IMG/VR virus record: IMGVR_UViG_3300032665_000003
Origin: a virus
Taxonomy: Duplodnaviria; Heunggongvirae; Uroviricota; Caudoviricetes
DNA: 64,000 nt
Direction: 5' to 3' (one strand)
Of the stretch, positions 5,958 through 43,870 are shown one piece after another. The notes beneath the pieces are model-generated. The model saw only the letters and a list, made by a program, of their open reading frames with translations. It was not told the origin of the DNA and did not search any database. Position numbers and translations under genes: made by a program. Numbering within the stretch: the first letter of the stretch is position 1; each line of letters opens with the position of its first letter.

Positions 5958-5967
5958 TAATAAAATT

Positions 5968-6042: not shown

Positions 6043-6102
6043 GTATCTGTATGATTCATAGTAGCAAACAGTGTGCTGCGTGTCAACCGATTTTATTAAA
6101 AA

Positions 6103-6194
6103 TGGCGGAGAGACAGGGATTCGAACCCTGGGTACCTATTTCTAGGTACGATGGTTTAGCAAACCACTCCCTTCGGCCTCTCGGGCACCTCTCC
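6103..6194 (-). tRNA. tRNA-Ser (GCT), type II
   Basis: Anticodon arm GTGGT-TTGCTAA-ACCAT, long variable hairpin CGTACCTAGAAATAGGTAC, T-arm with GTTCGAATCC, CCA encoded. Confidence 0.75.
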
Positions 6195-6204
6195 GTAATA
6201 GTAT

Positions 6205-6588
6205 TTATATACCTAAATGCTTCTTCGCATTTTCAATGTAACCGATGATTCTGTCTTTACCAGCCGGATTCATAGAATGTACTATGTACTTTGGAAATTT
6301 CTTTCCGTGATCCGTGCAGTAATCGACCAACCATTTGGCACAATCGTATCCGGTCTTTTCATCACCGTAGGCCGCGTCATGACCTTCAGATTCAGCCAAC
6401 ATAGCAGCATAGTGTTCATCTGCAAGGTCGTGATCAAAACAGACAAATTCAGGAACGCCATGCAACGAAATATGCTTAATGAATTGATCATAGTTACGAA
6501 GAATGTAGGTCAATTCATCGCGAGGGAACGATTCCCAGGTAACTTGATCTGGCATTCGAACATCATCTAGAAACAGTAGGTATGACAT
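6205..6588 (-). CDS. hypothetical protein (127 aa)
   Basis: ORF track. Confidence 0.4.
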   Translation of the reverse strand: MSYLLFLDDVRMPDQVTWESFPRDELTYILRNYDQFIKHISLHGVPEFVCFDHDLADEHYAAMLAESEGHDAAYGDEKTGYDCAKWLVDYCTDHGKKFPKYIVHSMNPAGKDRIIGYIENAKKHLGI

Positions 6589-9513: not shown

Positions 9514-9855
9514 TCAACCGGCTATTTTAATTTCTTTGTAAACTTCCCTACCGTTAACATACCAATGTTTAGTTCCATCTGCACATTCAATCGCAGGGCC
9601 GTCTTCTCGGTGACGTTGTCCGTTAAAATACCATTCTTTGTCACCGTTAGCACGTTCCAACGCAGGGCCGTCTTCTCGGTGAAGTTCTCCGTAGCGATAC
9701 CAACATACGCTGTTAATACCAATTACTGCAGGGCCGGCTTCTCGGTGTAGGGTTCTATTCAAAAACCACATACGAGTTCCGCTACTATACGTAACGACTC
9801 TATAACCCTTTAGAGTATCCCACATCATTTGTTCATCAGATATCGGCGGTAGCAT
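9514..9855 (-). CDS. MORN-repeat protein
   Basis: HREDGPA repeats; shares the N-terminus MLPPISDEQMMW with 1053..1370. Confidence 0.5.
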   Translation of the reverse strand: MLPPISDEQMMWDTLKGYRVVTYSSGTRMWFLNRTLHREAGPAVIGINSVCWYRYGELHREDGPALERANGDKEWYFNGQRHREDGPAIECADGTKHWYVNGREVYKEIKIAG

Positions 9856-10120
9856 GTTCTCTGTTCTTTTGTGTGAGTTCTCGGTGTTTTTCTTCGGTCA
9901 TGTTTTGGTCGTTTAGATACCAATACCGAGTTCCATCCGCATCTTCAACCGCCGGGCCGTCTTCTCGGTGAAGTTCTCCGTAGCGATACCAAGCCCGAGT
10001 TCCGTTCGCATGTTCAACCGCAGGGCCGTCTTCTCGGTGCCACTGCCCGTTTAGAGACCACCACCGCTCGCCGGGCCTGTCCACATCAATAGTATACCCC
10101 TTAAGGATATACCACATCAT
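9836..10120 (-). CDS. MORN-repeat protein paralogue; the conserved start ATG reads ATT here
   Basis: The upstream in-frame sequence translates as ILPPISDEQMMW (ATT instead of ATG). Overlaps the next MORN ORF by 20 nt. Confidence 0.45.
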   Translation of the reverse strand: MMWYILKGYTIDVDRPGERWWSLNGQWHREDGPAVEHANGTRAWYRYGELHREDGPAVEDADGTRYWYLNDQNMTEEKHRELTQKNREHATADI

Positions 10121-15157: not shown

Positions 15158-15232
15158 TGGTGCCTAGAACAGGATTGAACTGCCGGCCTTCGCTTTACGA
15201 AAGCGCTGCTATACCAATTCCGCCACCTAGGC
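15158..15232 (-). tRNA. tRNA with anticodon loop TTCGTAA (CGT, Thr-like); the anticodon stem is atypical
   Basis: Acceptor GCCTAGG, T-arm GGCAG-TTCAATC-CTGTT, CCA encoded. The anticodon arm GCGCT-TTCGTAA-AGCGA has a G.A closing pair. Confidence 0.6.
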
Positions 15233-17062: not shown

Positions 17063-17446
17063 TTAGTTATTTACTGTGTTGTCGCCGTGAAACTGTCCGT
17101 ATATACAATGGATAAATTCGTGACCAACAAACTCTGGTTGGTAAGTCACGCTAGGATCCATCATGTGAATTGTGCATGTATCATAACTAGGAGGTTGCAG
17201 CAGGCTAAATGCTACTACGTTAGTAGAATTTACTTTATGATCTGATGCCGTAGTACTCTTATTGAGATACCCTGCTACTACTCGGTTTAATTCCGAAGGT
17301 GATTTATATGTAACTATCTTAATCGTAACTTCGTGCTTCTCGTACTGCTTTTGTTTAAAAGTATAACCATCAGCGCCAACTTGTGAACTTGAATTTGGCG
17401 TACATGCTGCTAACGCAAGCACAGCGATGCATAGTAATTTTTTCAT
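17063..17446 (-). CDS. lipoprotein with an HExxH motif (HEFIHCIYGQFHG); possible small zinc metallopeptidase
   Basis: Signal peptide plus lipobox LAACT; HEFIH motif. Confidence 0.45.
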   Translation of the reverse strand: MKKLLCIAVLALAACTPNSSSQVGADGYTFKQKQYEKHEVTIKIVTYKSPSELNRVVAGYLNKSTTASDHKVNSTNVVAFSLLQPPSYDTCTIHMMDPSVTYQPEFVGHEFIHCIYGQFHGDNTVNN

Positions 17447-19756: not shown

Positions 19757-19835
19757 TTGGTGGGTCTAATTGGAATCGAACCCACGTCTGCTGCTTTGGA
19801 GACAGCGGTACTACTATTGTACGAAGTGCGCATGA
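19757..19835 (-). pseudogene. tRNA-like sequence (anticodon arm GCTGT-CTCCAAA-GCAGC would give CCA/Trp); the acceptor stem does not pair
   Basis: Good D-arm (GTAC-AATAGTA-GTAC), anticodon arm and T-loop GGGTTCGATTCC, but 5'/3' acceptor complementarity is absent. Flanked by more tRNA-like debris at 19680-19940. Confidence 0.25.
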
Positions 19836-22089: not shown

Positions 22090-22558
22090 TCTTACCAATA
22101 GCGGCTATCGCAGCAGCAATTTTCACAATTGCTGATTTTGCCTTAACATTTATGCCGCCGTTTGTTAGCAGACTCGAATAATAATTGATTAATTTTTCGT
22201 GCTGCATAGCGATGGCTGCTGCAAAAGCATATGCGTTGTGATTTGGTTGATTCCAATCATTGGTCAATCCACCAGTATATTGAGGATATGACATGCATGT
22301 CGCTTCCATAACTAGAAGCACTGCTACTTTCTTTGCTATTTCTCTTTCGTCGGATCCGAAAAGTGGACCATTCATAGAAATTTCAAATGCCAAACCACCA
22401 TTAGCAGTTGCGGTAGCAGCAGCAAGAGCACAACCGTGAACAGTTATTTCATCTAACTGTGCTACCGCATCATCTATGGAGTATTGTAGCGTTTCAGCCA
22501 CAGATTCCGCATATTCCGGAATAGTACCCTTTACGTCATCAATCCAATTTCGAGTCAT
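22082..22558 (-). CDS. hypothetical Ala-rich protein (158 aa), translationally coupled (TAATG) to the upstream MqsA-like gene
   Basis: ORF track; stop/start overlap at 22556-22560. Confidence 0.45.
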   Translation of the reverse strand: MTRNWIDDVKGTIPEYAESVAETLQYSIDDAVAQLDEITVHGCALAAATATANGGLAFEISMNGPLFGSDEREIAKKVAVLLVMEATCMSYPQYTGGLTNDWNQPNHNAYAFAAAIAMQHEKLINYYSSLLTNGGINVKAKSAIVKIAAAIAAIGKIT

Positions 22559-23016
22559 TATTTTCCTAAAGCAGGGCAGTATAGTCGTAGTTGATCTTTT
22601 CCTTCACCCGGGGCATCGGCAGCCAGCAGGGCGCAGGCGTTGTGGCGGACAAGATGATCCGAATAGTCACCCACACCCTTTCCCCCATCCTTCTCCCAAC
22701 GAGAGGCTGTCTCAGCCGTGATACCCATCGTCTCGGCAAATTCCTTTTGCGTCATGTCCAAAGCACGGCGCAGCAGACGCATATCACCCGCGTTCAGTTT
22801 GATCGGCAGCAGGCAACGAGCCACAGCCACCGTCCGCACTAGACCCCGCATGTCCGGGATCATGGTCATCTCGTCCGCACATCCAGCGCAGCGACGCACG
22901 TGGACGGTGTTTTTCAGGCACACCTCAATTCCGCCGACATCCTCCAGGTGCTCCGGGAGGATGTACTCCTCATAGTGGCCATTGCCACATTCCGTGCATG
23001 TCGTCGTAGTGTTCAT
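22558..23016 (-). CDS. MqsA/YgiT-family zinc-finger plus XRE-type HTH protein (antitoxin-like), located in a visibly GC-rich island
   Basis: N-terminal CTECG...CAGC zinc ribbon, then LRRALDMTQKEFAETMGITAETASRWEKG, which closely parallels E. coli MqsA RKKLSLTQKEASEIFGGGVNAFSRYEKG. GC content is clearly above the rest of the window. Confidence 0.65.
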   Translation of the reverse strand: MNTTTTCTECGNGHYEEYILPEHLEDVGGIEVCLKNTVHVRRCAGCADEMTMIPDMRGLVRTVAVARCLLPIKLNAGDMRLLRRALDMTQKEFAETMGITAETASRWEKDGGKGVGDYSDHLVRHNACALLAADAPGEGKDQLRLYCPALGK

Positions 23017-24983: not shown

Positions 24984-25517
24984 TTAGTTTTTCAGATATA
25001 CGAGGATGTTTTCAGGTGAAGATTCACCGTAGGGATCCGTATCGCAATTGTGTTCGATGCCAGGTTCAATAAACCACTTTTCAATGCGTCCATTGTCAAC
25101 GATTACCGCATATCGCCAAGAACGAACACCGAAACCCAAATTATCCTTAGCAACAAGCATGTTCATCTTGCTAGTGAATTCACCAGAACCATCCGGAATA
25201 ACCTTAACGTTCTTTAGATTTTGGTCTTGAGCCCACTTGTTCATGACGAACGAATCGTTCACTGACAAGCAGTAGATTTCGTCAATACCCAAATCCTTAA
25301 ATTGTTGATAGTTATTTTCAAAACCCGGAAGTTGGTAAGTAGAGCAAGTAGGGGTAAATGCTCCAGGCAGCGCAAATAGCACAACTCGCTTTCCTGCGAA
25401 ATAGTCAAATGAAGTTACTTCTTGCCAGCGATATGGATTGGGTCCTTCGATACTATCGTCACGAACCCGAGTCTTAAAGACTACGCTAGGGACTAGCGTA
25501 GGAAGGTCAGCACTCAT
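24984..25517 (-). CDS. peroxiredoxin, Prx5-like atypical 2-Cys (AhpC/TSA family)
   Basis: Motif VVLFALPGAFTPTCS. Start trimmed to MSADLPT. Confidence 0.7.
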   Translation of the reverse strand: MSADLPTLVPSVVFKTRVRDDSIEGPNPYRWQEVTSFDYFAGKRVVLFALPGAFTPTCSTYQLPGFENNYQQFKDLGIDEIYCLSVNDSFVMNKWAQDQNLKNVKVIPDGSGEFTSKMNMLVAKDNLGFGVRSWRYAVIVDNGRIEKWFIEPGIEHNCDTDPYGESSPENILVYLKN

Positions 25518-25567
25518 AATGTCTCCTTTATAATAATGACATATACTACAACTTAATGCAGTATATG

Positions 25568-25873
25568 TCAATTATTATGGGACAGCAGGTCTTCCTTAGT
25601 CATAGTAAAACGAGATTTAACCCAAGCATCACGCATGACTTGCAGCCGTTGACCAACTTCCTTGCCAGGCTTCATACCAGTTTCCAGCAGGTCTTGTCCT
25701 TTAATCGGAAAGATCGGAGGAACATAGCATTCGGCATAGTCGGGACTTTGATCTTGCAGCAGAGCCCAAGAAACTGCCCAATCACGTCGAACACCGTCAA
25801 CCAGACGCAGTTGAAAAACACGGGAAGTGAATTCCTCGTGCAGCGATTTCAGTTCTTGTGTGATCATGTCCAT
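25568..25873 (-). CDS. small protein resembling the C-terminal domain of class II tRNA nucleotidyltransferases (CCA-adding enzyme / poly(A) polymerase)
   Basis: PIKGQDLLETGMKPGKEVGQRLQVMRDAWVKSRF compares with I.G.DL.alG.kPGp..G..L......ql.g. Confidence 0.3.
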   Translation of the reverse strand: MDMITQELKSLHEEFTSRVFQLRLVDGVRRDWAVSWALLQDQSPDYAECYVPPIFPIKGQDLLETGMKPGKEVGQRLQVMRDAWVKSRFTMTKEDLLSHNN

Positions 25874-25921
25874 AAGTCACATTATTATAAGGTGTATACG
25901 GAGTCAAGATATATTTTAAGA

Positions 25922-25975
25922 GTGGCGGGCCCGACAGGATTTGAACCTGCAATCTTGAGCTTTAGAGACTCTTGT
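25922..25975 (-). pseudogene. tRNA 3'-half fragment (T-arm GCAGG-TTCAAAT-CCTGT, acceptor CGGGCCC, discriminator G, CCA) with no matching 5' half
   Basis: The 5' portion has no acceptor complementarity and no anticodon arm. Confidence 0.4.
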
Positions 25976-26049
25976 GAAACCATTCAGCCTCAGGCGCGCA
26001 TAACTCTTATGTAACGAATAATACGATAATATACGCTGAATGTCAAGCC

Positions 26050-27513
26050 TTAAGCAATTATTCCTTGAACTACTTTACCTGCAGTATCAGTTAAACGGAA
26101 ATCTCTACCTTGATAATGGTATGTAAGTTGTTTGTGATCAATTCCTAAAAGATATAACACAGTAGCATTTAAATCGTGAACTTCTACTGGATTTTCCACA
26201 ACATTATAAGAGAAATCATCTGATTTGCCGTATTCGATGCCAGGTTTTGTTCCGCCTCCGGCCATCCACATCGTAAAGTTTCCTCCGTGATGGTCACGCC
26301 CGCAGTTTGGATTTATTCCTCCTTGCGCGTATACAGTTCTACCGAATTCACCCTTCCAAGTTACAAGAGTATCATCTAGAAGTCCTCGCTGCTTTAAATC
26401 CGTCACCAAAGCAGCAGATGGCTGATCTACTGCCCAACAGTCACTAGGATGTCGGCGGGCAATACCATTATGGTGATCCCATCCAACTTGAATTAGGTTG
26501 ACATACTTAACACCGCGTTCAATAAGACGACGTGTTAATAGGCAATTGCGAGCAAAGCTACCTGGTTGATGAACCTGAGGACCATACATATCGAGTATAT
26601 ATTGTGGTTCATCAGATAGATCAGTTACCTCAGGTACAGAATCTTGCATACGATATGCCATTTCATATTGAGCAATTTTGGCTAAGACTTCTGGGTCATC
26701 GGTCGTCTGATACTGATAGCGCGATAATTCACCGATAAGATCAATTTGACTTCTTCGTTCTTCACGACTAATGCCATCTGGATTGCTTACATAAAGAACA
26801 GGAGAATTACCAGAACGAAATTCAACACCTTGGTGATTAGAGGGCAAAAATCCTGCTGACCAAGTAGCCTGAGTAGCGCCAACCCCTGCTGATTGGAACT
26901 GAGATTTCATGACTACATATGAAGGGAGATTAGAGTTATCAGTCCCTAATGCATAATTAACCCATGCTCCAGCGGCAGGGCGGCCCGCTAATTGAAACCC
27001 AGTATGCATGAGAATGTCTGCTGGATCGTGATTAACTTGGGGAGTCCATATAGAATGAATGAAGGTTAGATCATCTGATATAGACCCTATATGTGGCATT
27101 AGGTCTGAAACCCAACGACCACATTGACCATATTGTTTATATGGAGCAATAGGACCCATAAGAGGGAAAGAAGTTTGTCCATTAGACATTGATGATATTT
27201 TGCCATGACCCTTTACAGAAGGTGGAATTTCTTGCCCATGGCGCTTGATAACTTCTGGCTTATAATCAAAAGTATCAATTTGGGATACTGCTCCTTTCAT
27301 GTGAATGTCAATTACACGCTTTGCTCTTGCTGGAAATTGACCTGTAGTTAACTTACCTAAATCTGGGCCAGTCTCGCTGGAAGGTGCAGCACTGGCTGCT
27401 TGTGATTTGGTAGCACCTAATAATTCGGCGCCGGCTATCACACCCAATCCCATACTCGTGCCTAAAAGTGACCGGCGGGCAAAATTTATTAATTCATTTG
27501 GATCATTATTCAT
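26050..27513 (-). CDS. DUF1501 family protein (sulfatase / alkaline-phosphatase-like fold) with a Tat signal peptide
   Basis: Twin-arginine motif FARRSLLGTSMGLGVIAGA. The C-terminus GRDHHGG...GGG...GIEYGKSDD...VHDLNATVLYLLGIDHKQLTY..GRDFRLTD is typical of DUF1501. Confidence 0.8.
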   Translation of the reverse strand: MNNDPNELINFARRSLLGTSMGLGVIAGAELLGATKSQAASAAPSSETGPDLGKLTTGQFPARAKRVIDIHMKGAVSQIDTFDYKPEVIKRHGQEIPPSVKGHGKISSMSNGQTSFPLMGPIAPYKQYGQCGRWVSDLMPHIGSISDDLTFIHSIWTPQVNHDPADILMHTGFQLAGRPAAGAWVNYALGTDNSNLPSYVVMKSQFQSAGVGATQATWSAGFLPSNHQGVEFRSGNSPVLYVSNPDGISREERRSQIDLIGELSRYQYQTTDDPEVLAKIAQYEMAYRMQDSVPEVTDLSDEPQYILDMYGPQVHQPGSFARNCLLTRRLIERGVKYVNLIQVGWDHHNGIARRHPSDCWAVDQPSAALVTDLKQRGLLDDTLVTWKGEFGRTVYAQGGINPNCGRDHHGGNFTMWMAGGGTKPGIEYGKSDDFSYNVVENPVEVHDLNATVLYLLGIDHKQLTYHYQGRDFRLTDTAGKVVQGIIA

Positions 27514-27524
27514 GTTTATTCCTC

Positions 27525-30500
27525 TTAGTGCAAAGTATATGCGTCTGGGGTATTCATGACGCTTGCAGTGACCATAGTCATTGCTGCGAGTTGGGCCGGA
27601 TCAATCGAAGTATCGGTAGGAGAAACCCCCATAGAAAGTATCTTTTTTACTTCATCAGGGGAATTCTGCATTCTGCTAATTTCAGCAACACGATATTTCC
27701 TCAATACTGATAGTTCATTATCATTTGGATGGCGCCGAACAGCCAAACGGAACATCGTTATCAGTTGTTGATCTTGATTTGCAGAAGACTTGATTGCTCT
27801 TTCAGATAGCTTACGATAAGCTTCCATAAATTGAACGTCATTCAACATAACCAATGATTGCAGAGGTGTAGTTGACACTGGACGTAGAACTTGTGCATTG
27901 TAGCGATCTGGCATGTCAAACGGTACTAAGTTGGCTACTGGTGAGTTCCGCTTTATATAGGTATACATAGATCGTCTGTGCATTTGATCATCCGGTTCAT
28001 TTGTAGGATAAATAACCGCACCTTGCGCTACACCATCCCAAATTGCATCTGGAGCATATGGGAATACTGCATCTCCGCCCACTTTCTTAAGTAACAGACC
28101 AGAGGCAGCTAATGCATTATCACGAATAACTTCTGCTGGCATTCTAAAACGTGGTCCTCGTTCTAGAAGAAAATTTCGTGGATCTTTTTCTAATGCGTCA
28201 TGCGTAATATTAGAATTTTGACGATAAGTTGCAGACATAACTATTAGTTTTTGTATGTGCTTTATATCCCAACCAGACCTAATAAACTCTACGGCTAGGT
28301 AATCAAGTAGTTCCGAATGAGTTGGATTAGTTCCTTGTGTACCAAAATCATCTACCGTTTGAACTATACCAGTACCGAAATGATTTTGCCATATGCGGTT
28401 TACATAAACCCTAGCAACGAGCGGATTTTTCGGATCAAACATCCATTCAGTTAGTCCCAAACGGTCTCTAGGTAAAGTTTCGTTCCATGCAAATACTCGG
28501 TTCGGTGCCTGAGGTTTTACTTCTTGTAGATAGCTGTTATAGACCCCACGATCTAACACGAAGTTTTTACGAGGAATAGCCTGATCTCCTGCAACCATGA
28601 CACGATAGATCGGAGTTTCTATGCGTTGTTCAGCAAGTCGTGCATCTGTCATCTCTTGCCAGGCTCGTTGAACCGCAGGATCCAGTTCAGCCATAATTAA
28701 CTTCATATCAGATATTGCTTGCTGTGCCGGAACTTGTTTAAGTAGTGCAGGATCCTGCAGATAAGTAATTTCCGTAGGAGTCAATGCCCGTGTAATCACA
28801 CGTAGCTCATCAATGGCGCCGTCTACTAATTCCGGTCTATTAAAGTTAACTCCAGCAGACAACCCAAAATAACTCACAAACTGACTGTTTCCGCCGCGCG
28901 GAAATGCGCTACGTGTTAAGTGGTCATGATCAATTTGAGCTTTTTGTTCTACACCATCAAAATATAGATGCATACCAGCCGCTTTGGAGTTACCGTCATA
29001 AGTAGAAGTTATATGAACCCAACGACCTGTGGGAACATCTTGAATCGTAGAAATTCTAAGCATGTCGGTTGGAGCTTGGTGAGTAATAGAATATGCCATT
29101 TTATTATTAGACATGGTTAATTCATAACCAAGCCCTTCAATGCCGCCGTTGTTATAAATTATAGATGCAGACGGTCCTAATGGACGAGTATTGTCGTAAT
29201 ATGGTTTCTTTGGAAGCTTCAACCAAAAATCTAATGTGTATGGTTGAGTTCTTTCAAACATACCTACACTTTTGTCCGCAGCAAAAACTGAATCTTTTAG
29301 TTGAATTCCCTGTCCCTTGTGACCGGAAACAAACTTTACATTACTTACAAATCCACGCTTTTCACCCTGAATCCCTGCATCTGTCCACAACAGTGAATCT
29401 TCATGAATCCATTGTGGAAGTTGACGTTTCATGATACGTTGTGGGTCTCCTAAACGATCATCAGTAAATCCGGATGCTACAAGCTGTTCCATAGCCCAAT
29501 CGATTTCATGAGAAGCTATTCTCGGAAGATTAGGGTCCGCCTTCATTGCAGCAATGTCTCCGTCCATACCGCCGAATCGTGAGCGGCGAAGGGGTGCTTT
29601 TTTAGGGTCCTTTATATCTGAAGACTTGATGGTTTTAGGAGACATAGAATCATCTTTAGGTGTCATACTAGGAGTTGGTTTACCGACCTTTACATCTGCA
29701 AGAATTTTATTTTGTAATATGGCAGTAACTTGAGCCGCAGTTAATCCGGGAAAGTTATTTTTTTGATTAGGTAGAGGTTCACCAGGTGCCGTTGGTTGCG
29801 GATCTAGGTACAGTTCATCAAATGAATCTTTGTACCCTGCATCTAATGGATAATAGGCTTGTGTGTCTGCTTGAATAGATGATTGTATAAATGTTGTTCG
29901 GTTTGTGTCTAATGCTATTTTATTGATCTGCGCAGATTGTAAAGCAACTTGATAAGCTTGTTCTTTAGCTACTGTAATTGCATGGGCGGCCTCAAGTCTT
30001 TTTGATTGCAGCGGAGTCGGCCATTCGATTGTGGCGCCGCCGGGTGTACCACGAGAACCGGATCCTTGTCCTCGCTCGTCCATCTGATTAAAGAATCCAG
30101 CTAATGAATAGTAATCTGATTGGGCAATCACATCATATTTGTGATTGTGGCATTTGGCGCACCCAACGGTTAGACCCAAAAAGTCTTTACCTATTAATTC
30201 TGTTCTTTCTTGGACATAATTAGTTCTAAATTCTTCATCAATTGATCCGCCCTCTGAATCTTGACGACCTTCTTTAAGGAAGGCACTTGCAAGTAATTGC
30301 TCACGAGTCGGATGACCATTATTAAGTTTATCGCCGGCAAGCTGCCAGGTCACAAACTCATCATAAGGCATGTTGCGTTTAAACGCATTGATGACCCAAT
30401 CACGATACGGGAAACTGATTCCTCGTTCCCCGTCATTTAGTCCTCCGCGGCTGTCTGCATACCGAGCAACATCCATCCAAATATTTGTTTGGCGTTCTGC

Positions 30501-31196
30501 ATACTCGGTAGATGATAAAAGATGATCTACTATCTTCTCGTAAGCATTAGGAGAGGTGTCATTGATAAATGCATCTACTTCTTGAAGCGAGGGAGGAAGT
30601 CCAGTTAGGTCTAGATAAACACGATTTATAAGCGTTTCTTTGTCCGCTTCCGCAGAAGGAGATAACCCTTCTGTAGCTAATTTGGCATAGATATATCGAT
30701 CAATGGCGTTGACAGCTTGCTTGTCCCATTTAGTTCTTTCTGGCTTTACTACTGTCGGTGTTATGTATGCCCAGTGTTGTTTATAGTGAGCACCTTGTTC
30801 AATCCATCGCTTTATAATTGCGATTTCATGTGCAGACAGGGTTTTATGAGAATCTTTAGGTGGCATTCTGTAGTCTGCATCAGTCGAAGTAATGCGTTTA
30901 AATGCCTCGCTTTTACTAGGATTACCCGGAACAAAAGCGTGTTTGGTTTTGTCTTCTGGTATGGAATCGTAAGCGGCTTTTTGTATGTCTAACCGTAGAC
31001 CAGCCTTCTGTGTTCCTTGCCCGTGACAAGCAAAGCAATTTTGTGACAAAATCGGACGAACGTCCCAATTGTAGTCAGGATTGTTTGGAATATTTTCTGC
31101 GTTTGCAGTTTGTTGTCTAGATGTAAAGCAAGCTGTGAGTGTGAGTGTGGAAACTATAGCGGTAACTGCTAGTAAAATAGCCTTCGCGTGCTTCAT
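27525..31196 (-). CDS. PSCyt1 (cytochrome-c-like CxxCH) / DUF1549 (PSCyt2) / DUF1553 (PSD1) multidomain lipoprotein
   Basis: Lipobox LTLTAC; DVRPILSQNCFACHG..KAGLRLD (PSCyt1); the C-terminus ..DMPDRYNAQVLRPVSTTPLQSLVMLNDVQF is typical of DUF1553. Confidence 0.8.
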   Translation of the reverse strand: MKHAKAILLAVTAIVSTLTLTACFTSRQQTANAENIPNNPDYNWDVRPILSQNCFACHGQGTQKAGLRLDIQKAAYDSIPEDKTKHAFVPGNPSKSEAFKRITSTDADYRMPPKDSHKTLSAHEIAIIKRWIEQGAHYKQHWAYITPTVVKPERTKWDKQAVNAIDRYIYAKLATEGLSPSAEADKETLINRVYLDLTGLPPSLQEVDAFINDTSPNAYEKIVDHLLSSTEYAERQTNIWMDVARYADSRGGLNDGERGISFPYRDWVINAFKRNMPYDEFVTWQLAGDKLNNGHPTREQLLASAFLKEGRQDSEGGSIDEEFRTNYVQERTELIGKDFLGLTVGCAKCHNHKYDVIAQSDYYSLAGFFNQMDERGQGSGSRGTPGGATIEWPTPLQSKRLEAAHAITVAKEQAYQVALQSAQINKIALDTNRTTFIQSSIQADTQAYYPLDAGYKDSFDELYLDPQPTAPGEPLPNQKNNFPGLTAAQVTAILQNKILADVKVGKPTPSMTPKDDSMSPKTIKSSDIKDPKKAPLRRSRFGGMDGDIAAMKADPNLPRIASHEIDWAMEQLVASGFTDDRLGDPQRIMKRQLPQWIHEDSLLWTDAGIQGEKRGFVSNVKFVSGHKGQGIQLKDSVFAADKSVGMFERTQPYTLDFWLKLPKKPYYDNTRPLGPSASIIYNNGGIEGLGYELTMSNNKMAYSITHQAPTDMLRISTIQDVPTGRWVHITSTYDGNSKAAGMHLYFDGVEQKAQIDHDHLTRSAFPRGGNSQFVSYFGLSAGVNFNRPELVDGAIDELRVITRALTPTEITYLQDPALLKQVPAQQAISDMKLIMAELDPAVQRAWQEMTDARLAEQRIETPIYRVMVAGDQAIPRKNFVLDRGVYNSYLQEVKPQAPNRVFAWNETLPRDRLGLTEWMFDPKNPLVARVYVNRIWQNHFGTGIVQTVDDFGTQGTNPTHSELLDYLAVEFIRSGWDIKHIQKLIVMSATYRQNSNITHDALEKDPRNFLLERGPRFRMPAEVIRDNALAASGLLLKKVGGDAVFPYAPDAIWDGVAQGAVIYPTNEPDDQMHRRSMYTYIKRNSPVANLVPFDMPDRYNAQVLRPVSTTPLQSLVMLNDVQFMEAYRKLSERAIKSSANQDQQLITMFRLAVRRHPNDNELSVLRKYRVAEISRMQNSPDEVKKILSMGVSPTDTSIDPAQLAAMTMVTASVMNTPDAYTLH

Positions 31197-31260
31197 TTTT
31201 TTATGTCCTAAATGGCAATAATCCTCTTATTGTCAAGTATTTAGCACATATTATGTATAA

Positions 31261-31545
31261 CTAGTTCTTTTGGAAAGACTTACAGAAATCTTCTGGTGTC
31301 TGAGCGATCACAATAAAGTTATCATGATCTTCTGAGTTCTTGACCACGTAAGACCCGTCCGGGCGCAAGTAAACCGAAGGAACTCCTGGTGGGCATGGAT
31401 TAGCTAGCTTGTAATCAGCAGGGATTGAAGGATCGCTTGATGTATCAGAGCCTTGCTGAACAAACGAACCGCTAGCGGGTTTATTACACCCCGCTAGCGC
31501 CACGATAGAAGCAAGCCCGATAATCATCGATAGCATGCGGGCCAT
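31261..31545 (-). CDS. small lipoprotein
   Basis: Signal peptide plus lipobox LAGC. Confidence 0.5.
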   Translation of the reverse strand: MARMLSMIIGLASIVALAGCNKPASGSFVQQGSDTSSDPSIPADYKLANPCPPGVPSVYLRPDGSYVVKNSEDHDNFIVIAQTPEDFCKSFQKN

Positions 31546-31546
31546 A

Positions 31547-32395
31547 CTAGTTACCCTTCATCAGATTGCCGATGATCGGGATTTCAGCCCCAGCGCCAAC
31601 ATAAGTCGGCATCTTACCACCAGTTTCCTTCCAGGCTTCAATCGCACGAAGCTTGACGAGTTCTGGGCTAGCCTTAATCGATTGAGCAAGCAGTGCGTTA
31701 GCATCAGCTTCACCCTTAGCCTTAGCAACCGCAGAGCGAGCATTGGCTTCAACCGTGATCACGTTAGCCTCAGCAGCCTTAGCTTGCTGTTCGTTAGCGA
31801 TACGTTGGTTGATTTGATCGTGAATCGATTGGGGCATACGAATAGTATTCGCCCAAGTCAGACGCTCGATGTTCAGACCGTAAGGCTTGAAGTGAGCAGC
31901 GACTTCAACCTGCACCTTATCCAACAGTTCCTTCTTCTTAGGACCGAAGATTTCATCGACCGCATAGGCAGAAGCAATGTCGTTCAGATCGTTACGAATT
32001 TCGTTACGAATTTGATTTTCGACAAGACCTTCGGCAGTAGAGCGGAACTTCTGATAAAGAACCGGAGCCTTGCTAGAGTCAACCGAATAGCTTACAGCAA
32101 TGTCGGCACCCATATTCAGACCTTGCTTGTCATTGAACGTAAATTCTTCGTTGACAGCCTTGCCTTCATTCTTAGAAGCGGTGTAGATATATTGCTGAGT
32201 ATAAACCGGAAACTCGATAATTTGAGTTCCCATTGGGGTAAAATACGTACCGACACCTAGAACATTAGGGTCAACACCAGAACCTGAACCATATTGATTA
32301 ACCTTAAGGCCAACATATCCGGGTTGCACTTGACCACATGCAGCAAGAGCCGCAGCGGCAGCACCGACGATAAGAACCGTCTTAATGTTATTCAT
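31547..32395 (-). CDS. SPFH/band-7 (stomatin/prohibitin/HflKC-like) domain lipoprotein
   Basis: Lipobox LAACG; SPFH-like core; a C-terminal Ala/Lys/Glu-rich coiled coil (QQAKAAEANVITVEANARSAVAKAKGEADA). Start trimmed to MNNIKT. Confidence 0.7.
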   Translation of the reverse strand: MNNIKTVLIVGAAAAALAACGQVQPGYVGLKVNQYGSGSGVDPNVLGVGTYFTPMGTQIIEFPVYTQQYIYTASKNEGKAVNEEFTFNDKQGLNMGADIAVSYSVDSSKAPVLYQKFRSTAEGLVENQIRNEIRNDLNDIASAYAVDEIFGPKKKELLDKVQVEVAAHFKPYGLNIERLTWANTIRMPQSIHDQINQRIANEQQAKAAEANVITVEANARSAVAKAKGEADANALLAQSIKASPELVKLRAIEAWKETGGKMPTYVGAGAEIPIIGNLMKGN

Positions 32396-32402
32396 AGTTT
32401 GA

Positions 32403-32543
32403 TTAGTCCTTTGATTGAGGTTGTTTGATAATATTGAACACAAATTCAATGATTAGTGTTGCGGTAAGAATCACAACGAGCATGGTTCCCAGCAGTGCGC
32501 CGAAGATCGCGAAGTCGTTGTGAATGTTAATCATCCAGGGCAT
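32403..32543 (-). CDS. small membrane protein (46 aa) immediately upstream of the SPFH gene; possible NfeD/YqiJ-like partner
   Basis: Manual translation MPWMINIHNDFAIFGALLGTMLVVILTATLIIEFVFNIIKQPQSKD. Confidence 0.35.
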   Translation of the reverse strand: MPWMINIHNDFAIFGALLGTMLVVILTATLIIEFVFNIIKQPQSKD

Positions 32544-32723
32544 GATAGCACGGAACCAAATAAGAGGAACCATAACATAAGAGGAACCATAACTACTGCA
32601 AAACCCTTGATGAACTCGATTAGAAAACCATATACTGATTTCTTATTCACAGGTAGCCTCTTAGTTTCGTACAGAGCCTTCTCTGTATCGATAACTACAA
32701 TTTATCAGCGACTAGACGTAAAG

Positions 32724-33035
32724 TCAATCGTCTTTGTACCCAAAATCGACACCATCAATAAATTTTTTCTCCTGCATAGTTATTTCATTGAAAAACTTAC
32801 GAGGATTTCCACACATCATACAATTTGGATCTCCGCAATTCAAAGAATGCATTTTTGCGTACCGATGCATTTTGTTAGGATCAGGATTCATTCCATGTGA
32901 TTTTGCGATACTGTATTGTTTCTTGGCTGCGGTGTTCGCCGCTGCTCTACGTTTAGATTTCTTAAGTCTGCTTTCGGAATCACTCACGATTGGTTGGCCT
33001 TGATTTAGGGTTATGTGGATTTTTTTGTTTAGCAA
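32724..33035 (-). CDS. small basic protein with a C-terminal zinc-ribbon-like CGDPNCMMCGN
   Basis: ORF track. Confidence 0.35.
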   Translation of the reverse strand: MLNKKIHITLNQGQPIVSDSESRLKKSKRRAAANTAAKKQYSIAKSHGMNPDPNKMHRYAKMHSLNCGDPNCMMCGNPRKFFNEITMQEKKFIDGVDFGYKDD

Positions 33036-33170
33036 GTGTTTCTTGCTGCTGCTGCGGAGACCAACCCATCGTCCGTAACTTACCTTGCATTAATATTTGA
33101 TTTAACAGCTTTCGTCCGGCGCCCATATTGTTTAGATTCATGTCAGCCACCTCTCAAGCTATTTATTGCG

Positions 33171-33211
33171 CAAAATACAGGTGCTATTGAAATAACACCT
33201 GTATTTTTGTT
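33171..33211 (-). terminator. rho-independent terminator-like hairpin (9-bp stem ATACAGGTG/CACCTGTAT, 12-nt loop) with flanking T-runs on both strands
   Basis: Begins immediately after the nuclease-gene stop. Followed by ATTTTG on the minus strand and TTTTTG on the plus strand. Confidence 0.5.
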
Positions 33212-34052
33212 AGTCTACACTCGCACTTGGTCCACATGCTGCCTTCTTAGAAGCAGTCAGTTTACCAAAATCAACCGGCCATTCTTTTCCTACCGGAAGT
33301 TCCTGAGCATTCTTAGGTAATGCTACAATTACACCTGATTCCTTTTCAATAGCGGCAATAGATGTACGATACTTAGTTAGATCGTTTCCTAAATTAGGAT
33401 ACGGAGCCGTATGAGGGAAATACCAACCTGCTACCATTCCAGTTTGATCATCAATGACAATCTTGTAGAACGCATGAGGCACAACGACGCCGGACCCAAT
33501 CTTTTTATCTCCAGCTGCATAGATTGCTCCGGAAATTGCGGTGAATGGACGGTTCTGTTGGAACGCCCAACCACGAAAGGAAGTTTCTAACAATTTCCAA
33601 ATCCCGCGATTGAGAGAAGGAGCCTGAGGTGTCATATTAGTCATTAGAAATGACTCATACTCAACTTGTTGATTCCAACTTTGGTCGCCGTCGGGCGCCA
33701 TGTGGCCCTTATCGTAACCGGAGCCTGCATAGTCGTTAGGCGTTGCTCCGCCTGCTATAGATGGGTCAGCGGTAAATGCATTTGATCGCACAACACAACC
33801 TAACGCAGCTTGCGGAGTAAGTGTCCACTCTACGTATTCTGGTATTTTTGAACTAGCGTCATACCCAACCAGATATGCCTGACGGCATATAGATTGAACT
33901 GGTTTAGTGCTTTGCGGCGGTCCAAAAGGTGCATGTACTGAACAACTCGCAATAGGCAAAGGTGCGCGAGGTGTAAATGCGTAGCTTGTATCATAAAGAC
34001 ATAGAGATATTAGCAGTATTGATACTACTGCAAAAAACTTTTTCATAAACAT
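33210..34052 (-). CDS. secreted DNA/RNA non-specific endonuclease (Serratia NucA / EndoG family)
   Basis: Signal peptide MKKFFAVVSILLISLCL; the active-site-like motif GYDKGHMAPDGD..N resembles the DRGH motif of the family. Confidence 0.6.
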   Translation of the reverse strand: MFMKKFFAVVSILLISLCLYDTSYAFTPRAPLPIASCSVHAPFGPPQSTKPVQSICRQAYLVGYDASSKIPEYVEWTLTPQAALGCVVRSNAFTADPSIAGGATPNDYAGSGYDKGHMAPDGDQSWNQQVEYESFLMTNMTPQAPSLNRGIWKLLETSFRGWAFQQNRPFTAISGAIYAAGDKKIGSGVVVPHAFYKIVIDDQTGMVAGWYFPHTAPYPNLGNDLTKYRTSIAAIEKESGVIVALPKNAQELPVGKEWPVDFGKLTASKKAACGPSASVD

Positions 34053-40892: not shown

Positions 40893-41126
40893 CTAAAGTT
40901 TGTCTTTCATCTTTGCGTGATACTTCTTCATTGCTTCGCTATGTTGTTCGCACCACTCTTTTGTCCCACTACGGCCGCTCATTGCTTTGCTTTGATTCTT
41001 TTTATGCTCTTCTGTTTTATTAATACCTTTAGTAGTCTTCTTTACGTACGGAGCAATGCTTTCGCTGTAGGTGTATTTAATCTGCTTTCCTTTACAACTC
41101 GGTATCTTGTGTTGGAATCCAACCAC
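40893..41126 (-). CDS. small basic hypothetical protein
   Basis: ORF track. Confidence 0.25.
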   Translation of the reverse strand: MVGFQHKIPSCKGKQIKYTYSESIAPYVKKTTKGINKTEEHKKNQSKAMSGRSGTKEWCEQHSEAMKKYHAKMKDKL

Positions 41127-41760
41127 TTCTAAAATATTTTACCATATTCATATACGGTCCTATAACTTTGCTTTCATTAATATAACTCTTATCGTTCACT
41201 AATGTATATAACTTACAGTACGAGGGTTTATTGTTTTCTACCCAAACATTGTAAATCGTTTCTGCTTGTTTCCAAACAGATTTAGAATAATCTGTTGCTC
41301 TTGGATGATTCCAGGGCTTAACACCAGAACATGGATTTTTTTCACCCGTCATTCGGGTAGACATTGATTTTAATGTGTCGTCCGAAAAGTTGACTTTATT
41401 TTTATAGCCTGTCATACCCTTGTTCCATGGTCCGTTTAGTTTTGCCGGGTTATTAGGACCGCGCATATATTCGGAATATTGTCTCTTTAACCAGCCATAT
41501 GACTTGTTGTTTCTCTGTTGTTCACTATTTGATGATAGCATAAACATAGCGGCCTTTACCAGTCGTATATTGTTAGGATACAGTTTAACTAATAACAGAT
41601 GACACAAATAATGTTCTTCAGGAGTCAATGATACTAAGTTAGATGCGTCATCGGTTCCACCAAGACATTTAGGAACAATATGATGCTTCTCGCTATATCC
41701 TTCTAGTATTCTACTCTGTCCTCTACTTACTAATGTATTGTATATTTTTTCATAGTTCAT
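41092..41760 (-). CDS. HNH homing endonuclease with a NUMOD-like C-terminus
   Basis: EKHHIVPKCLGGTDDASNLVSLTPEEHYLCH. Confidence 0.65.
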   Translation of the reverse strand: MNYEKIYNTLVSRGQSRILEGYSEKHHIVPKCLGGTDDASNLVSLTPEEHYLCHLLLVKLYPNNIRLVKAAMFMLSSNSEQQRNNKSYGWLKRQYSEYMRGPNNPAKLNGPWNKGMTGYKNKVNFSDDTLKSMSTRMTGEKNPCSGVKPWNHPRATDYSKSVWKQAETIYNVWVENNKPSYCKLYTLVNDKSYINESKVIGPYMNMVKYFRSGWIPTQDTEL

Positions 41761-41816
41761 GTAAATCTCCTGTAAACTTATTTATCATAGTTTACAGAAA
41801 ACTTATAGTTTACATG

Positions 41817-42905
41817 CTATAACTTACAACTCTCGCAGGAATCTTCATCTTCAAAAAAGTCTATAGGCATAAGAGGTGCATCGTCGGCTTCTTCTTTAGA
41901 ACCTTGTTTACACACGAGGCTATAATAAAGCGTCTTGAGACCGAACTTATGTGCTAGCATCAAATTTTTAGCAATTAGCGTAGTTGGTATCTTGCGATCA
42001 GGGAAATGTGCTGGATTATAGAACGTATCAGTTGAAATTGATTGATCCATGTATGCAGCAAGAACAGCAGAGGTCTTAAGATACTCGACGCAATCAACCT
42101 GATCCCACATCAACTGATAATTCTTTCTGACCTTAATATTATGATATTCTGGGACAACTTGCACGAAGGATCCCGCTTTTGATTCCTTAACAGAAATCAA
42201 ACTCATTGGTAGTGCAATACCATTAGTTGAATTAATGGCAACAGATGAAGATTCAACCGGAGCAATGGCACCAACTGTGCTGTTTCGCACACCATACTCT
42301 TTCATTTCAAATCGTAGTGATTCCCAATCAAGCTCAGGATTAAAGTCTGCTAGCTCGTTTACACCATTGGCTCTAAGTTCCCAGGGAAAGATTCCTTGAC
42401 CATAGCGGGTCTTGTCAGAGTCAATGCACTTTCCACGCTCTTTTGCCAATTCTACATTTGCTTCCATGAGGTAGTAAGTCTGGTGTTCTGCCCAACTCTT
42501 TACGTCCTGTAGTGCATCTGAGTCTCCGTACTTATATCCGCGCTTAGCGTGCCAGTATGCGAGATTAGTTACACCGATACCGATTGGACGAATCTCGTCA
42601 TTCGATAACTTAGACTGAATAGAAAGGAAGTCTTGATAATCCAAAATGTTATTCAGACTTCTTAGTAGAATACGACATGCTCGGCGCATATCTTCTGGGT
42701 TACGGAACGCACCCCAATTAATACTCCCTAAGGTACACAGCGCAATTCGGCCGGCCTCATCATCTAGTCTCTTGAATGACTTTGTAGGTAGTAGGATCTC
42801 GCAGTTATGAACTAATATGTTATTAGCAAAGAAACATTCTGTTTCAGGCACAGATAAGTCATATACATCGGTTGGTTCTACTTTAATTTTTTTAATTTTA
42901 ATCAT
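41817..42905 (-). CDS. nrdA: ribonucleotide reductase large subunit NrdA, C-terminal piece: C-intein (34 aa, ends ...ILVHN) followed by the C-extein starting CEILLPT
   Basis: MIKIKKIKVEPTDVYDLSVPETECFFANNILVHN | CEILLPTKSF. Joining the halves gives SNLC|CEILLPT, which matches the class I catalytic motif SNLCxEIxLPT. Confidence 0.8.
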   Translation of the reverse strand: MIKIKKIKVEPTDVYDLSVPETECFFANNILVHNCEILLPTKSFKRLDDEAGRIALCTLGSINWGAFRNPEDMRRACRILLRSLNNILDYQDFLSIQSKLSNDEIRPIGIGVTNLAYWHAKRGYKYGDSDALQDVKSWAEHQTYYLMEANVELAKERGKCIDSDKTRYGQGIFPWELRANGVNELADFNPELDWESLRFEMKEYGVRNSTVGAIAPVESSSVAINSTNGIALPMSLISVKESKAGSFVQVVPEYHNIKVRKNYQLMWDQVDCVEYLKTSAVLAAYMDQSISTDTFYNPAHFPDRKIPTTLIAKNLMLAHKFGLKTLYYSLVCKQGSKEEADDAPLMPIDFFEDEDSCESCKL

Positions 42906-43837
42906 ATTTTTATTCTTCCTAATACATAATTTGGATTATGTTTACAAAATTCTTCTTCGTCTGTGACTCTTACATTTTGTACGCCGTTGTTGTACCATCG
43001 ATGTTTTTTTGAGTGTTCTGCTGCAACCCGTCGTTGCTCTGCGCTTCTATGATATGGATTATATTTGATGTTTAGATTCAAGTTCTTATTCGTTTCGTTT
43101 ATTAGATTTTCTAAAGATCCAAACTTTTTGCCTATCCACGCCAATGAAATTTTCTTAAACTCTACAAATTCTTTTTTCATATTATCCTGCAATAAGTGTA
43201 ACTTCAAGTAACCCTCTTGACAAGATTCAGACACACATTTCCACATTCTTTCTCTTCGATCCTGAGTTAATTCCTTAAAGTTAGTATTTTTAGAACCAGA
43301 CATATCTCTTGCAGACTTTCCAGGAACGCCTTTACTATGATGAACCCATTCCCCTGATAAAACTTTAGGGTGATCTACGGAGACTGATCCTATTTTTTCT
43401 CTAGTCACAGCATCGACAACAGGCATCTTTCCTTTTCTTGCCTTACTAATACATTCATTGCCTAGTAGTCTTAAGTGTTCCATTTCTTTAAGAAACTTTT
43501 CATCAACATCTGACAAATTAATTTGTCGTTTGTGGTTGCCTGTCGCTTTTACAAAAAAGAATTGCAGGGCAGAACCAGCAGAGTATTCATAACGAGTTCC
43601 TTTATAAATCTCATACAAGTAGTAATGAGCCATTAAGTGTTCGGAAAAAGTCAATAGAATTAAATTCTCCGCGCTATCTGGATTACCGTCTAGATGCCCG
43701 TTTGGTCCTGTTCTCTTTCTGTTCTTGTACAAGAAATCAGGAACGATATGGTGTCGTTCATAATATGTTCCTTGATTTCTCATTCTGTTTTCTTTTCTTG
43801 CGTTGTCAATTATAGTCTTATAAAGTTCTTTATACAT
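42902..43837 (-). CDS. free-standing HNH homing endonuclease sitting between the N- and C-intein halves of nrdA
   Basis: YYERHHIVPDFLY...NLILLTFSEHLMAH; overlaps the downstream ORF by ATGA. Confidence 0.7.
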   Translation of the reverse strand: MYKELYKTIIDNARKENRMRNQGTYYERHHIVPDFLYKNRKRTGPNGHLDGNPDSAENLILLTFSEHLMAHYYLYEIYKGTRYEYSAGSALQFFFVKATGNHKRQINLSDVDEKFLKEMEHLRLLGNECISKARKGKMPVVDAVTREKIGSVSVDHPKVLSGEWVHHSKGVPGKSARDMSGSKNTNFKELTQDRRERMWKCVSESCQEGYLKLHLLQDNMKKEFVEFKKISLAWIGKKFGSLENLINETNKNLNLNIKYNPYHRSAEQRRVAAEHSKKHRWYNNGVQNVRVTDEEEFCKHNPNYVLGRIKI

Positions 43838-43870
43838 ATGAATTTCTCCATATGTATTTATGTTCGGGAA

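Follow-up and report, generated by a model that had tools for sequence, protein, structure and literature searches.

What is a two-gene module of bacterial chromosomes doing in the genome of a jumbo phage, where did it come from, and why has it been kept? The question is raised by positions 26050 to 31196 of a 64,000-nucleotide stretch of DNA from the IMG/VR virus record IMGVR_UViG_3300032665_000003 (this whole stretch is hereafter called the window). An earlier note, made from its letters alone, had recognized here two adjacent, co-oriented genes encoding a DUF1501 protein exported by the twin-arginine translocation (Tat) pathway and a 1223-residue lipoprotein with PSCyt1, DUF1549 and DUF1553 domains. 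This DUF1501/PSCyt/PSD1 module has been described mainly for the Planctomycetes–Verrucomicrobia–Chlamydiae (PVC) bacteria and, as the note stated, has no assigned function (PMC3542564, PMC5615132). From sequence comparisons and a structure model, we consider it probable that the pair is a host-derived cassette, captured long ago and kept by selection, which acts in the periplasm during infection and sustains a host function.

The gene pair and its phage context

Both open reading frames (ORFs) are exactly as first described; they lie on the same strand and adjoin each other, with 11 nucleotides (nt) between them, a spacing as tight as that found in the bacterial operons of the module (5–11 nt):

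26050-27513, minus strand: DUF1501 gene, 487 amino acids (aa), Tat signal, PF07394
27514-27524, minus strand: intergenic spacer of 11 nt with a GAGGA ribosome-binding site
27525-31196, minus strand: large lipoprotein gene, 1223 aa, predicted di-haem lipoprotein with four Pfam domains
Domains of the 1223-aa protein: PSCyt1, aa 54-115; PSCyt2/DUF1549, aa 165-373; Laminin_G_3, aa 646-810; PSD1/DUF1553, aa 911-1168
31197-31260, minus strand: upstream junction, a 64-nt spacer with a TTGACA hexamer and an AGGA ribosome-binding site before the large gene

With the Pfam hidden Markov models, the 487-aa protein matched PF07394 (DUF1501) at 491.1 bits against a cut-off of 27, over profile positions 1–390 of 390. 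The 1223-aa protein contains, in this order, PF07635 (PSCyt1, 56.7 bits), PF07583 (PSCyt2/DUF1549, 264.2 bits), PF13385 (Laminin_G_3, 61.7 bits) and PF07587 (PSD1/DUF1553, 299.1 bits), all above the gathering thresholds. The export and haem-binding motifs reported earlier are likewise present, and a LamG domain and a second CxxCH motif come in addition. Indeed, the DUF1501 protein carries the Tat motif FARRSLL at residues 11–17 (RRSLL at aa 13–17), followed by a hydrophobic stretch; this signal, predicted at the motif level only, is conserved in five bacterial orthologues and in most copies of the viral clades described below. The partner has a signal peptide with the lipobox LTAC at residues 20–23 (Cys23) and two haem motifs, CFACH (residue 54) and CAKCH (residue 346); the bacterial orthologues share the lipobox and the two haem motifs, and the protein shows weak similarity to di-haem cytochrome families. 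It is predicted to be a periplasm-facing lipoprotein carrying two c-type haems and a LamG domain that would bind a glycan or another ligand. A convincing -10 element was not found in the spacer 31197-31260.

The source of the DNA is a jumbo myovirus clade, the phage being of freshwater type. The window carries 30 tRNA genes and encodes a 1220-aa tail sheath, tail-tube proteins, a tail-fibre-like protein of 1520 aa and a ribonucleotide reductase whose split genes are accompanied by homing endonucleases. Sheaths about 46% identical to that of the window occur in Pseudomonas phage PA5oct, Agrobacterium phage Atu_ph07 and Sinorhizobium phage Phosso, and 265 IMG/VR contigs, some of 333–352 kb, encode sheaths that are 60–98% identical to it. 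The published 'Moraphage' lineage is a different clade, with Bacteroidota hosts.

The locus is found in at least six independent assemblies, which were located via the neighbouring peroxiredoxin (100% identical protein P0121): JGI 3300032562, 3300013093 and 3300032579, and Logan SRR26084411, SRR26084413 and SRR11607848. The gene order in these assemblies is nuclease, SPFH protein, 94-aa lipoprotein, 1223-aa protein, 487-aa DUF1501 protein, 101-aa ORF, peroxiredoxin and RimK. The pair shows 0 differences in 5136 nt across them, and the whole loci are 99.92–100% identical; within this phage clade, the pair is thus known from one clonal genotype. A metagenome scan aimed at the phage's own copy gave as its best match a bacterial sequence, 85% identical.

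Could the 5.1-kb segment be bacterial DNA misjoined to phage DNA during assembly, a danger to which the earlier note had drawn attention? In favour of such a chimera, the best matches of both proteins are bacterial. Among 50,697 GenBank phage records, megablast found no match for the region and tblastn none for either protein, and PHROGs holds no DUF1501 family and matches the partner only via its LamG domain. However, the junctions and the gene order are identical in six independent samples, phage genes on the same strand flank the pair on both sides, and its third-position composition and codon usage (see below) are phage-like, opposite to those of every bacterial relative at 57% identity or more. 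The pair is not chimeric, the probability of a misjoin or of contamination being practically negligible.

Origin and age of the pair, and the likely host

A search of 5.8 billion proteins returned many DUF1501 matches at 80–90% identity, several of which are labelled 'MAG: Caulobacteraceae bacterium' (MAG, metagenome-assembled genome). Identity to the Caulobacteraceae orthologues amounts to 80–91% for the DUF1501 protein and 66–83% for its partner, each of whose four domains is 66–86% identical to those of Caulobacteraceae-clade orthologues. The contigs of the nearest homologues are bacterial, have a G+C content (GC) of 59–68% and carry the two genes in the same order (large protein, then DUF1501), in the neighbourhood of thiG/thiS, aroQ, accB/accC and genes for TonB-dependent receptors, MarR, an amidohydrolase and beta-oxidation-type enzymes. 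When one genome per GTDB species was scanned, the top DUF1501 match came from a Caulobacteraceae MAG (81%), followed by an unclassified proteobacterium (68%) and Gammaproteobacteria MAGs (58–60%); every match from PVC bacteria, Bacteroidota or Acidobacteriota was at 53% identity or less. We also built the donor phylogeny that the earlier note had proposed. In the bootstrapped neighbour-joining tree, the phage DUF1501 protein sits on a short branch within a clade of 100% support holding all four Caulobacteraceae-labelled proteins, as sister (92%) to a protein from a 64%-GC contig. Moreover, both genes rank the bacterial loci alike (L009 > L001 > L006 ~ L002 > L010), which fits a joint capture. 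Taken as a whole, these comparisons show that the donor was a Caulobacteraceae-type chromosomal operon.

In four of the five bacterial contexts, the pair is followed by a third gene (PSCyt1 with or without leucine-rich repeats (LRR), about 516–525 aa), and a TonB-dependent receptor gene often comes next. The Caulobacteraceae-clade loci L001, L006 and L010 and the P0002 contig hold the pair, the third PSCyt1 gene and often the receptor gene. At two bacterial loci, a set of genes for MarR, Amidohydro_2, enoyl-CoA hydratase (ECH), aldehyde dehydrogenase and acyl-CoA dehydrogenase follows, which resembles aromatic or side-chain catabolism; this set near the bacterial module is a possible functional lead.

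The phage copies have taken on the composition of their surroundings, as had been noted from their richness in A and T. The GC of the pair genes is 0.42 and their GC at third codon positions (GC3) is 0.27 and 0.30, inside the phage range (mean 0.36, standard deviation 0.08; 0.25–0.31 for large structural genes), compared to 0.74–0.94 on the donor side. Their relative synonymous codon usage correlates with that of phage genes (r = 0.80–0.84) and runs opposite to that of the bacterial orthologues (r about -0.5). Since all relatives at 57% identity or more are high-GC, the low-GC loci being those of Bacteroidota at about 50%, this composition was not inherited from a low-GC donor.

Synonymous and nonsynonymous sites tell different parts of this history. 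By the Nei–Gojobori method, the proportion of synonymous differences (pS) between the phage and five bacterial copies is 0.94–1.10, i.e. saturated, and goes beyond saturation because the base compositions of the two sides are opposite. By contrast, nonsynonymous divergence (dN) is 0.065–0.16 for DUF1501 and 0.13–0.29 for the partner, about equal to the values among the bacterial orthologues themselves (0.10–0.155 and 0.20–0.27, respectively). Saturated synonymous sites with dN at the bacterial level point to an old capture under purifying selection. In Tajima's relative-rate test, the DUF1501 protein showed no acceleration on the phage branch (24 versus 16 unique changes, p = 0.2). The pair is old, fully ameliorated and intact, and by comparison of phage and bacteria it has been under purifying selection in the phage.

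A second transfer bears on the identity of the host:

22558-23016, minus strand: gene for a protein with a Zn-ribbon and an HTH_3 domain (MqsA/YgiT-like, antitoxin type); GC 0.57 and GC3 0.62, against a phage GC of 0.41

Among contigs 99.9% identical to one another, this gene is variably present (it is absent in L259 and encodes 143 aa in L254), and it looks like a recent, un-ameliorated acquisition. It has only 10 homologues in the 5.8 billion proteins; the named ones, at 66–68% identity, belong to Phenylobacterium sp., and one lies on a contig of 3.85 Mb. As Phenylobacterium belongs to the Caulobacteraceae, two independent transfers, one old and one recent, lead to the same family, and the comparisons point to a Caulobacteraceae, Phenylobacterium-like host. 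Among the sheath relatives, Atu_ph07 and Phosso are jumbo phages that infect Alphaproteobacteria. A 41%-GC phage on a host of 60–68% GC would be unusual, with a parallel in these two Rhizobiales phages, which are likewise low in GC and rich in tRNA genes; the 30 tRNAs of the present phage may offset the codon mismatch with a high-GC host.

The pair had initially been read as the mark of a PVC or Bacteroidetes host. The module is indeed most expanded in PVC bacteria, Bacteroidota and Acidobacteriota (PMC3542564), and the low GC of the phage resembles that of Bacteroidota. However, the gap between 80–91% identity to Caulobacteraceae-clade proteins and at most 53% to any PVC or Bacteroidota match, the 100% bootstrap value of the Caulobacteraceae clade, the Phenylobacterium matches of the recent gene and the mere 50% or so reached by the low-GC Bacteroidota copies all contradict it. 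We therefore abandoned this host assignment as extremely improbable.

Insertion site and relatives in other viruses

The IMG/VR relative L251 (GC 0.40) offers a comparison for the insertion site: there, the SPFH gene is followed by a small lipoprotein gene and, after about 390 bp, by the intact gene for a CCA-adding enzyme of 382 aa. These anchors lie 5.4 kb apart in the window (31261 and 25873), with the pair, a promoter-like site and a tRNA-like gene between them. Read against L251, the pair came in as a 5.4-kb insertion that separates the phage lipoprotein gene from the phage cca gene, in the following surroundings:

24984-25571, minus strand: peroxiredoxin, phrog_2281; conserved gene of the phage clade, whose likely true start gives 177 aa
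25568-25873, minus strand: remnant of the CCA-adding enzyme, 101 aa with an internal deletion; downstream anchor
25874-26049, minus strand: downstream junction, with a promoter-like TTGACA-17-TATTAT at 26046-26018 and then the tRNA-like gene; segment absent from L251
25926-25997, minus strand: tRNA-like gene whose anticodon, CUA, is of the amber-suppressor type; scored as a tRNA by Rfam at 34.6 bits (gathering threshold 29)
31261-31545, minus strand: 94-aa phage lipoprotein (LAGC); upstream anchor, 63% identical to its L251 counterpart
31547-32449, minus strand: SPFH/Band_7 lipoprotein (LAAC), phrog_200; gene of the phage clade, 82% identical to its L251 counterpart
33210-34052, minus strand: DNA/RNA non-specific endonuclease (NucA-like) with a signal peptide

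Upstream of the pair, the secreted nuclease, the SPFH lipoprotein and the 94-aa lipoprotein form an envelope-targeted run (31261-34052). On the other side, the 101-aa cca ORF corresponds to about 30 N-terminal and about 80 C-terminal residues of the intact L251 enzyme; such decay is odd for a phage with 30 tRNA genes. The tRNA-like gene is not called by ARAGORN, has one mismatch in the acceptor stem, another in the anticodon stem and a weak D-arm, has no close paralogue among the 30 phage tRNAs and is absent from L251; TAG is still an ordinary stop codon in the window (13 of 56 ORFs). The junctions gave no alignment with the L251 intergenic region, and a search for flanking repeats at the insertion borders found only short matches at chance level.

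Relatives with 84–89% identical peroxiredoxins carry other content in the interval between nuclease and peroxiredoxin genes (about 25570-34050 in the window). It is empty in L260 and L261, holds a reversed DegT/thiamine-pyrophosphate-enzyme/epimerase cluster for sugar biosynthesis in L262 (a 327.6-kb contig), and contains metK, an SPFH gene and small ORFs in L263 and L264 (352 kb); the pair is absent from all of them (L260–L264). The interval therefore behaves as a cargo hotspot, in which the pair is lineage-specific within this clade.

Is the module carried by other phages? Scans of IMG/VR with narrow motifs, taken from the window proteins or from a close-clade alignment (A1), were negative, and the absence from viral collections that they seemed to indicate was overturned by family-wide motifs from a diverse alignment (A4). 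The latter retrieved 35 contigs of 8–190 kb, mostly with a GC of 0.31–0.43, which encode PSCyt/PSD1 proteins at 29–44% identity, with an adjacent DUF1501 gene in 34 (L266–L299). The neighbouring genes encode HNH endonucleases, endonuclease VII, YopX, GP88, DUF932, ThyA, ThyX, DNA ligase, exonuclease, and tail and tail-fibre proteins; most ORFs on these contigs have no Pfam match. The search of viral metagenomes suggested by the earlier note thus did recover distant versions of the pair, and the same note's remark that it is not a known phage cargo holds for GenBank phages, for PHROGs and for the literature searched, not for these 34 contigs. In that literature, neither a function nor a phage occurrence of these domains is given, and the one phage paper with a domain name has it as a weak CDD match on a 61-aa protein.

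In the DUF1501 tree, the IMG/VR copies fall into two deep clades made up of viral sequences only (bootstrap 100 and 78), apart from the window's copy; as the bacterial reference set of this tree is biased to the window's subfamily, a 'virus-specific clade' is not established by it. These pairs keep the Tat motifs, the signal peptides, both CxxCH motifs and the core DUF1501 residues. They differ from the window's pair in their often reversed gene order, in their shorter partner proteins and in the absence of a lipobox from most partners. What their carriers have in common with the window phage is limited to a few scattered genes. Distant pairs that are not sister to the window's, in barely related carriers, argue for independent captures, and the sequences suggest at least three captures of the module by large phages, the Caulobacteraceae-derived one and those at the origin of the two deep IMG/VR clades; in other words, capture appears to be recurrent. 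Next to some of the IMG/VR pairs lie genes for N_methyl/DUF1559 pilin-like proteins, a kind characteristic of PVC bacteria, and some of these carriers may accordingly have PVC hosts.

How does the window's pair compare with known systems? Phages carry host-derived auxiliary metabolic genes such as cyanophage psbA, pstS and phoA. Like these, the pair is a close homologue of host genes set among phage genes, ameliorated, under apparent purifying selection and placed in a variable cargo region. It differs from them as a two-gene cassette whose products are both predicted to be exported and would depend on several host export and maturation systems. With the bacterial module (Kamneva et al. 2012, PMC3542564; He et al. 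2017, PMC5615132), it shares the domain architecture, the adjacency and order of the genes, the Tat and CxxCH motifs and the optional LamG domain; by contrast, it resides in a jumbo phage genome, has phage codon usage and comes without the third gene (PSCyt1 plus LRR) and the TonB-dependent receptor gene. When the pair was first noted as candidate auxiliary metabolic genes, 'auxiliary' was a reasonable word and 'metabolic' an assumption. Judging by these comparisons, it would be host-derived auxiliary cargo in a jumbo phage, a known kind, whose repeated capture by several large-phage lineages is apparently unreported.

Elsewhere in the window, we observed the following. The tRNA array (545-20841, minus strand) comprises 30 genes that all share the same strand; GIY-YIG/HNH-type and small ORFs are scattered between them, one of which encodes a small lipoprotein:

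17063-17446, minus strand: small lipoprotein (LAAC) inside the tRNA array

Unusual tRNA calls include a tRNA-Phe with anticodon AAA (15158-15232), two tRNA-Ser(CGA) and two tRNA-Pro(UGG); at 19769-19822, Rfam alone gives a match to part of a tRNA. Paralogous small ORFs at 1053-1370, 9514-9855 and 9836-10120 (minus strand) share a repeated, MORN-like '...W(Y/F)LNG..HREDGPA.E' motif; this family is scattered through the tRNA region and is multi-copy in L251 too (4732-6537). The gene for the large subunit of ribonucleotide reductase is split (41092-45526, minus strand): its N-part (43871-45526) has an intein-like tail and is followed by endonuclease-like ORFs (42902-43837 and 41092-41760), and the C-part (41817-42905) opens with an intein C-terminal '...VHNC' junction. 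Relatives carry the annotations Intein_splicing and SegE_GIY-YIG.

Fold, possible role and meaning of the pair

The DUF1501 protein had been called 'sulfatase-fold', a term that holds at the level of the alkaline-phosphatase superfamily and fails for sulfatases proper. Sequence and profile searches of the PDB gave no real solved relative of either protein. An AlphaFold2 model of the DUF1501 protein (predicted local distance difference test score 73, predicted template-modelling (TM) score 0.77) shows an alkaline-phosphatase-superfamily fold, for which Foldseek returned sulfatases, LtaS and PMH at probability 1.0, with TM scores of only about 0.3. The formylglycine motif C/S-x-P-x-R (also sought as C/S-x-P/A-x-R) is in neither the phage copy nor the five bacterial copies, and the canonical SDHG metal motif was not found in DUF1501; in profile-to-PDB alignments, an invariant GEFGRT (E389-T393) aligns with the metal-binding SD(H/N)G loop of sulfatases and of nucleotide pyrophosphatases/phosphodiesterases (NPPs). 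Type I sulfatases, represented by arylsulfatase A and carrageenan sulfatases (PDB 1e2s, 9hh2; 10–14% identity, TM about 0.3), possess both C/S-x-P-x-R and SDHG, unlike the DUF1501 copies with their GEFGRT. The NPP-type phosphodiesterases and PafA/PhoK alkaline phosphatases (PDB 7mw8, 5ege, 5too, 5xwi) are 12–14% identical to DUF1501, and the margin by which this class ranks above the sulfatases as a structural neighbour is only about 2 Z units. Their SDHG-loop Asp-His metal ligands are not conserved in DUF1501, where the invariant D80, H162, D346/H348 and H408 are present.

The invariant residues include S77, D80, N161-H162, D346, H348, E389-F390-G391-R392-T393 and D407-H408-H409, among which S/T77, D80, H162, D346, H348, E389, R392 and H408 are conserved from the phage to the distant viral copies. 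Position 77 is only ever Ser or Thr across these distant copies, and this alternation makes it a candidate catalytic nucleophile, as in this superfamily. The model and the alignments thus suggest that DUF1501 is a divergent metallo-hydrolase of the alkaline-phosphatase superfamily and not a classical sulfatase.

The course of events up to the present state of the genes is given by the comparisons. An ancestor of the jumbo myovirus took the first two genes of a Caulobacteraceae operon in one piece, and the cassette landed in the cargo hotspot between the lipoprotein gene and the cca gene. The mutational bias of the phage has since rewritten the synonymous sites completely while selection kept both proteins intact. 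From there on we propose a mechanism. Both proteins would be made during infection: the large one would be exported by the host Sec machinery, lipidated at Cys23 (Lgt/Lsp) and loaded in the periplasm with two c-type haems by the host cytochrome-c machinery, and the DUF1501 protein would fold with its metal cofactor in the cytoplasm before export by the host Tat system. In the periplasm, the LamG-bearing haem lipoprotein would partner the metallo-hydrolase, with its candidate Ser/Thr-77 nucleophile, as in the bacterium. The enzyme may act on an imported small ester or oligomer, an idea that stems from the TonB-dependent receptor genes often adjoining the bacterial operons. The phage copy would sustain or boost the host function once host gene expression collapses, like other host-like auxiliary metabolic genes.

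As to the chemistry, we can only speculate that a limiting nutrient, phosphate or possibly sulfate, is released from an organic ester. Hydrolysis of phosphate or sulfate esters is favoured by the fold neighbours, by the TonB-receptor context and by the large supply of nucleotides needed by a phage whose genome exceeds 300 kb and also encodes a secreted nuclease and a ribonucleotide reductase. In view of the repeated capture and long retention, we tentatively put forward, as a possibility more doubtful than the reading given at the outset, that the module performs a periplasmic step limiting phage production, most plausibly the freeing of phosphate or another nutrient, with the aid of the haem lipoprotein, from organic esters that have been imported.

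Several points weigh against the proposed host-derived auxiliary role. The phage lacks the third operon gene (PSCyt1 plus LRR) and the TonB-dependent receptor gene usual at the bacterial loci, and the Caulobacteraceae labels that designate the donor rest on MAG binning. A 'metabolic' role is assumed for a module whose function is not assigned even in bacteria, and the replacement of SDHG by GEFGRT may give DUF1501 a chemistry unlike that of any solved relative. The C-terminal part of the partner accumulated about 2.4 times as many changes on the phage branch (41 versus 17, p = 0.002, Tajima's test), a moderate acceleration that could be a sign of a changed role. With a single genotype, purifying selection is deduced from the phage–bacterium comparison only. 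Finally, the scan of the region for promoters and terminators gave results at chance level, and the promoter scan is uninformative on expression.

Would a fragment without any role, hitch-hiking from a bacterium and now decaying, account for the data as well? It would sit comfortably in a hotspot where relatives hold unrelated cargo or nothing, beside a decayed cca gene, and be carried, as observed, by one genotype only. However, both ORFs are intact over 5.1 kb despite saturated synonymous sites, dN equals that among the bacterial orthologues with no acceleration of the enzyme, no family-invariant residue has been lost, nor the Tat motif, the lipobox or either CxxCH motif, and distant pairs have been retained in two deep viral clades, which makes a neutral passenger very improbable.

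The remaining explanations grant the pair a role and differ as to its nature. All neighbours within 26050-34052 have signal peptides or lipoboxes, and the pair might belong to an envelope-remodelling block serving superinfection exclusion, receptor masking or modification, envelope integrity or lysis timing; the LamG domain, which suggests glycan binding, the faster evolution of the lipoprotein partner on the phage branch and the incompleteness of the bacterial pathway, whose third gene and transporter are missing, would be in keeping with this. We nevertheless hold it to be rather unlikely: relatives without the pair do have the SPFH, lipoprotein and nuclease genes, so that the pair is not integral to the block, the two proteins are near-copies of those of a chromosomal operon adjoining TonB receptors and catabolic genes, and neither the PADLOC defence models nor NCBIfam gave anything for the pair. 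Alternatively, the di-haem lipoprotein might serve as a periplasmic electron carrier, or as a peroxidase-like partner of the phage peroxiredoxin, against oxidative stress. Its two conserved CxxCH motifs and its resemblance to di-haem cytochromes, the peroxiredoxin gene about 480 bp downstream and the electron transport proposed for the module by Kamneva et al. (PMC3542564) speak for such a redox role. The peroxiredoxin, however, has no signal peptide and is conserved in relatives without the pair, from which it is separated by the tRNA-like gene and the cca remnant with promoter-like sites of their own, and the obligatory alkaline-phosphatase-superfamily partner would be left unexplained, so that we judge this option decidedly unlikely.

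Returning to the host-derived cassette kept for a periplasmic function, the persistence of intact proteins through a complete turnover of synonymous sites, together with independent retention elsewhere, argues that the activity of the module is valuable within a single infection cycle. This narrows the hypotheses on its function: a fast-acting periplasmic function fits, and a structural role in intracellular membranes does not. The locus also illustrates that predicting a host from the usual taxonomic spread of a domain can badly mislead, gene-level phylogeny being here specific and independently corroborated, and it documents a low-GC (41%), tRNA-rich jumbo phage that apparently exchanges genes with hosts of 60–68% GC.

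The genomes of many Planctomycetes and Verrucomicrobia each hold tens of copies of the DUF1501/PSCyt/PSD1 module, which is also found widely outside these groups (PMC3542564, PMC5615132). The Caulobacteraceae include genetically amenable bacteria and thereby offer a tractable test system for it. If the module does perform a periplasmic step limiting phage production, the pair would be the first phage auxiliary system made of a Tat-exported enzyme and a c-type cytochrome lipoprotein, and phage–host pairs would provide the first experimental handle on one of the largest uncharacterised two-gene families of PVC bacteria, Bacteroidota, Acidobacteriota and some Proteobacteria.

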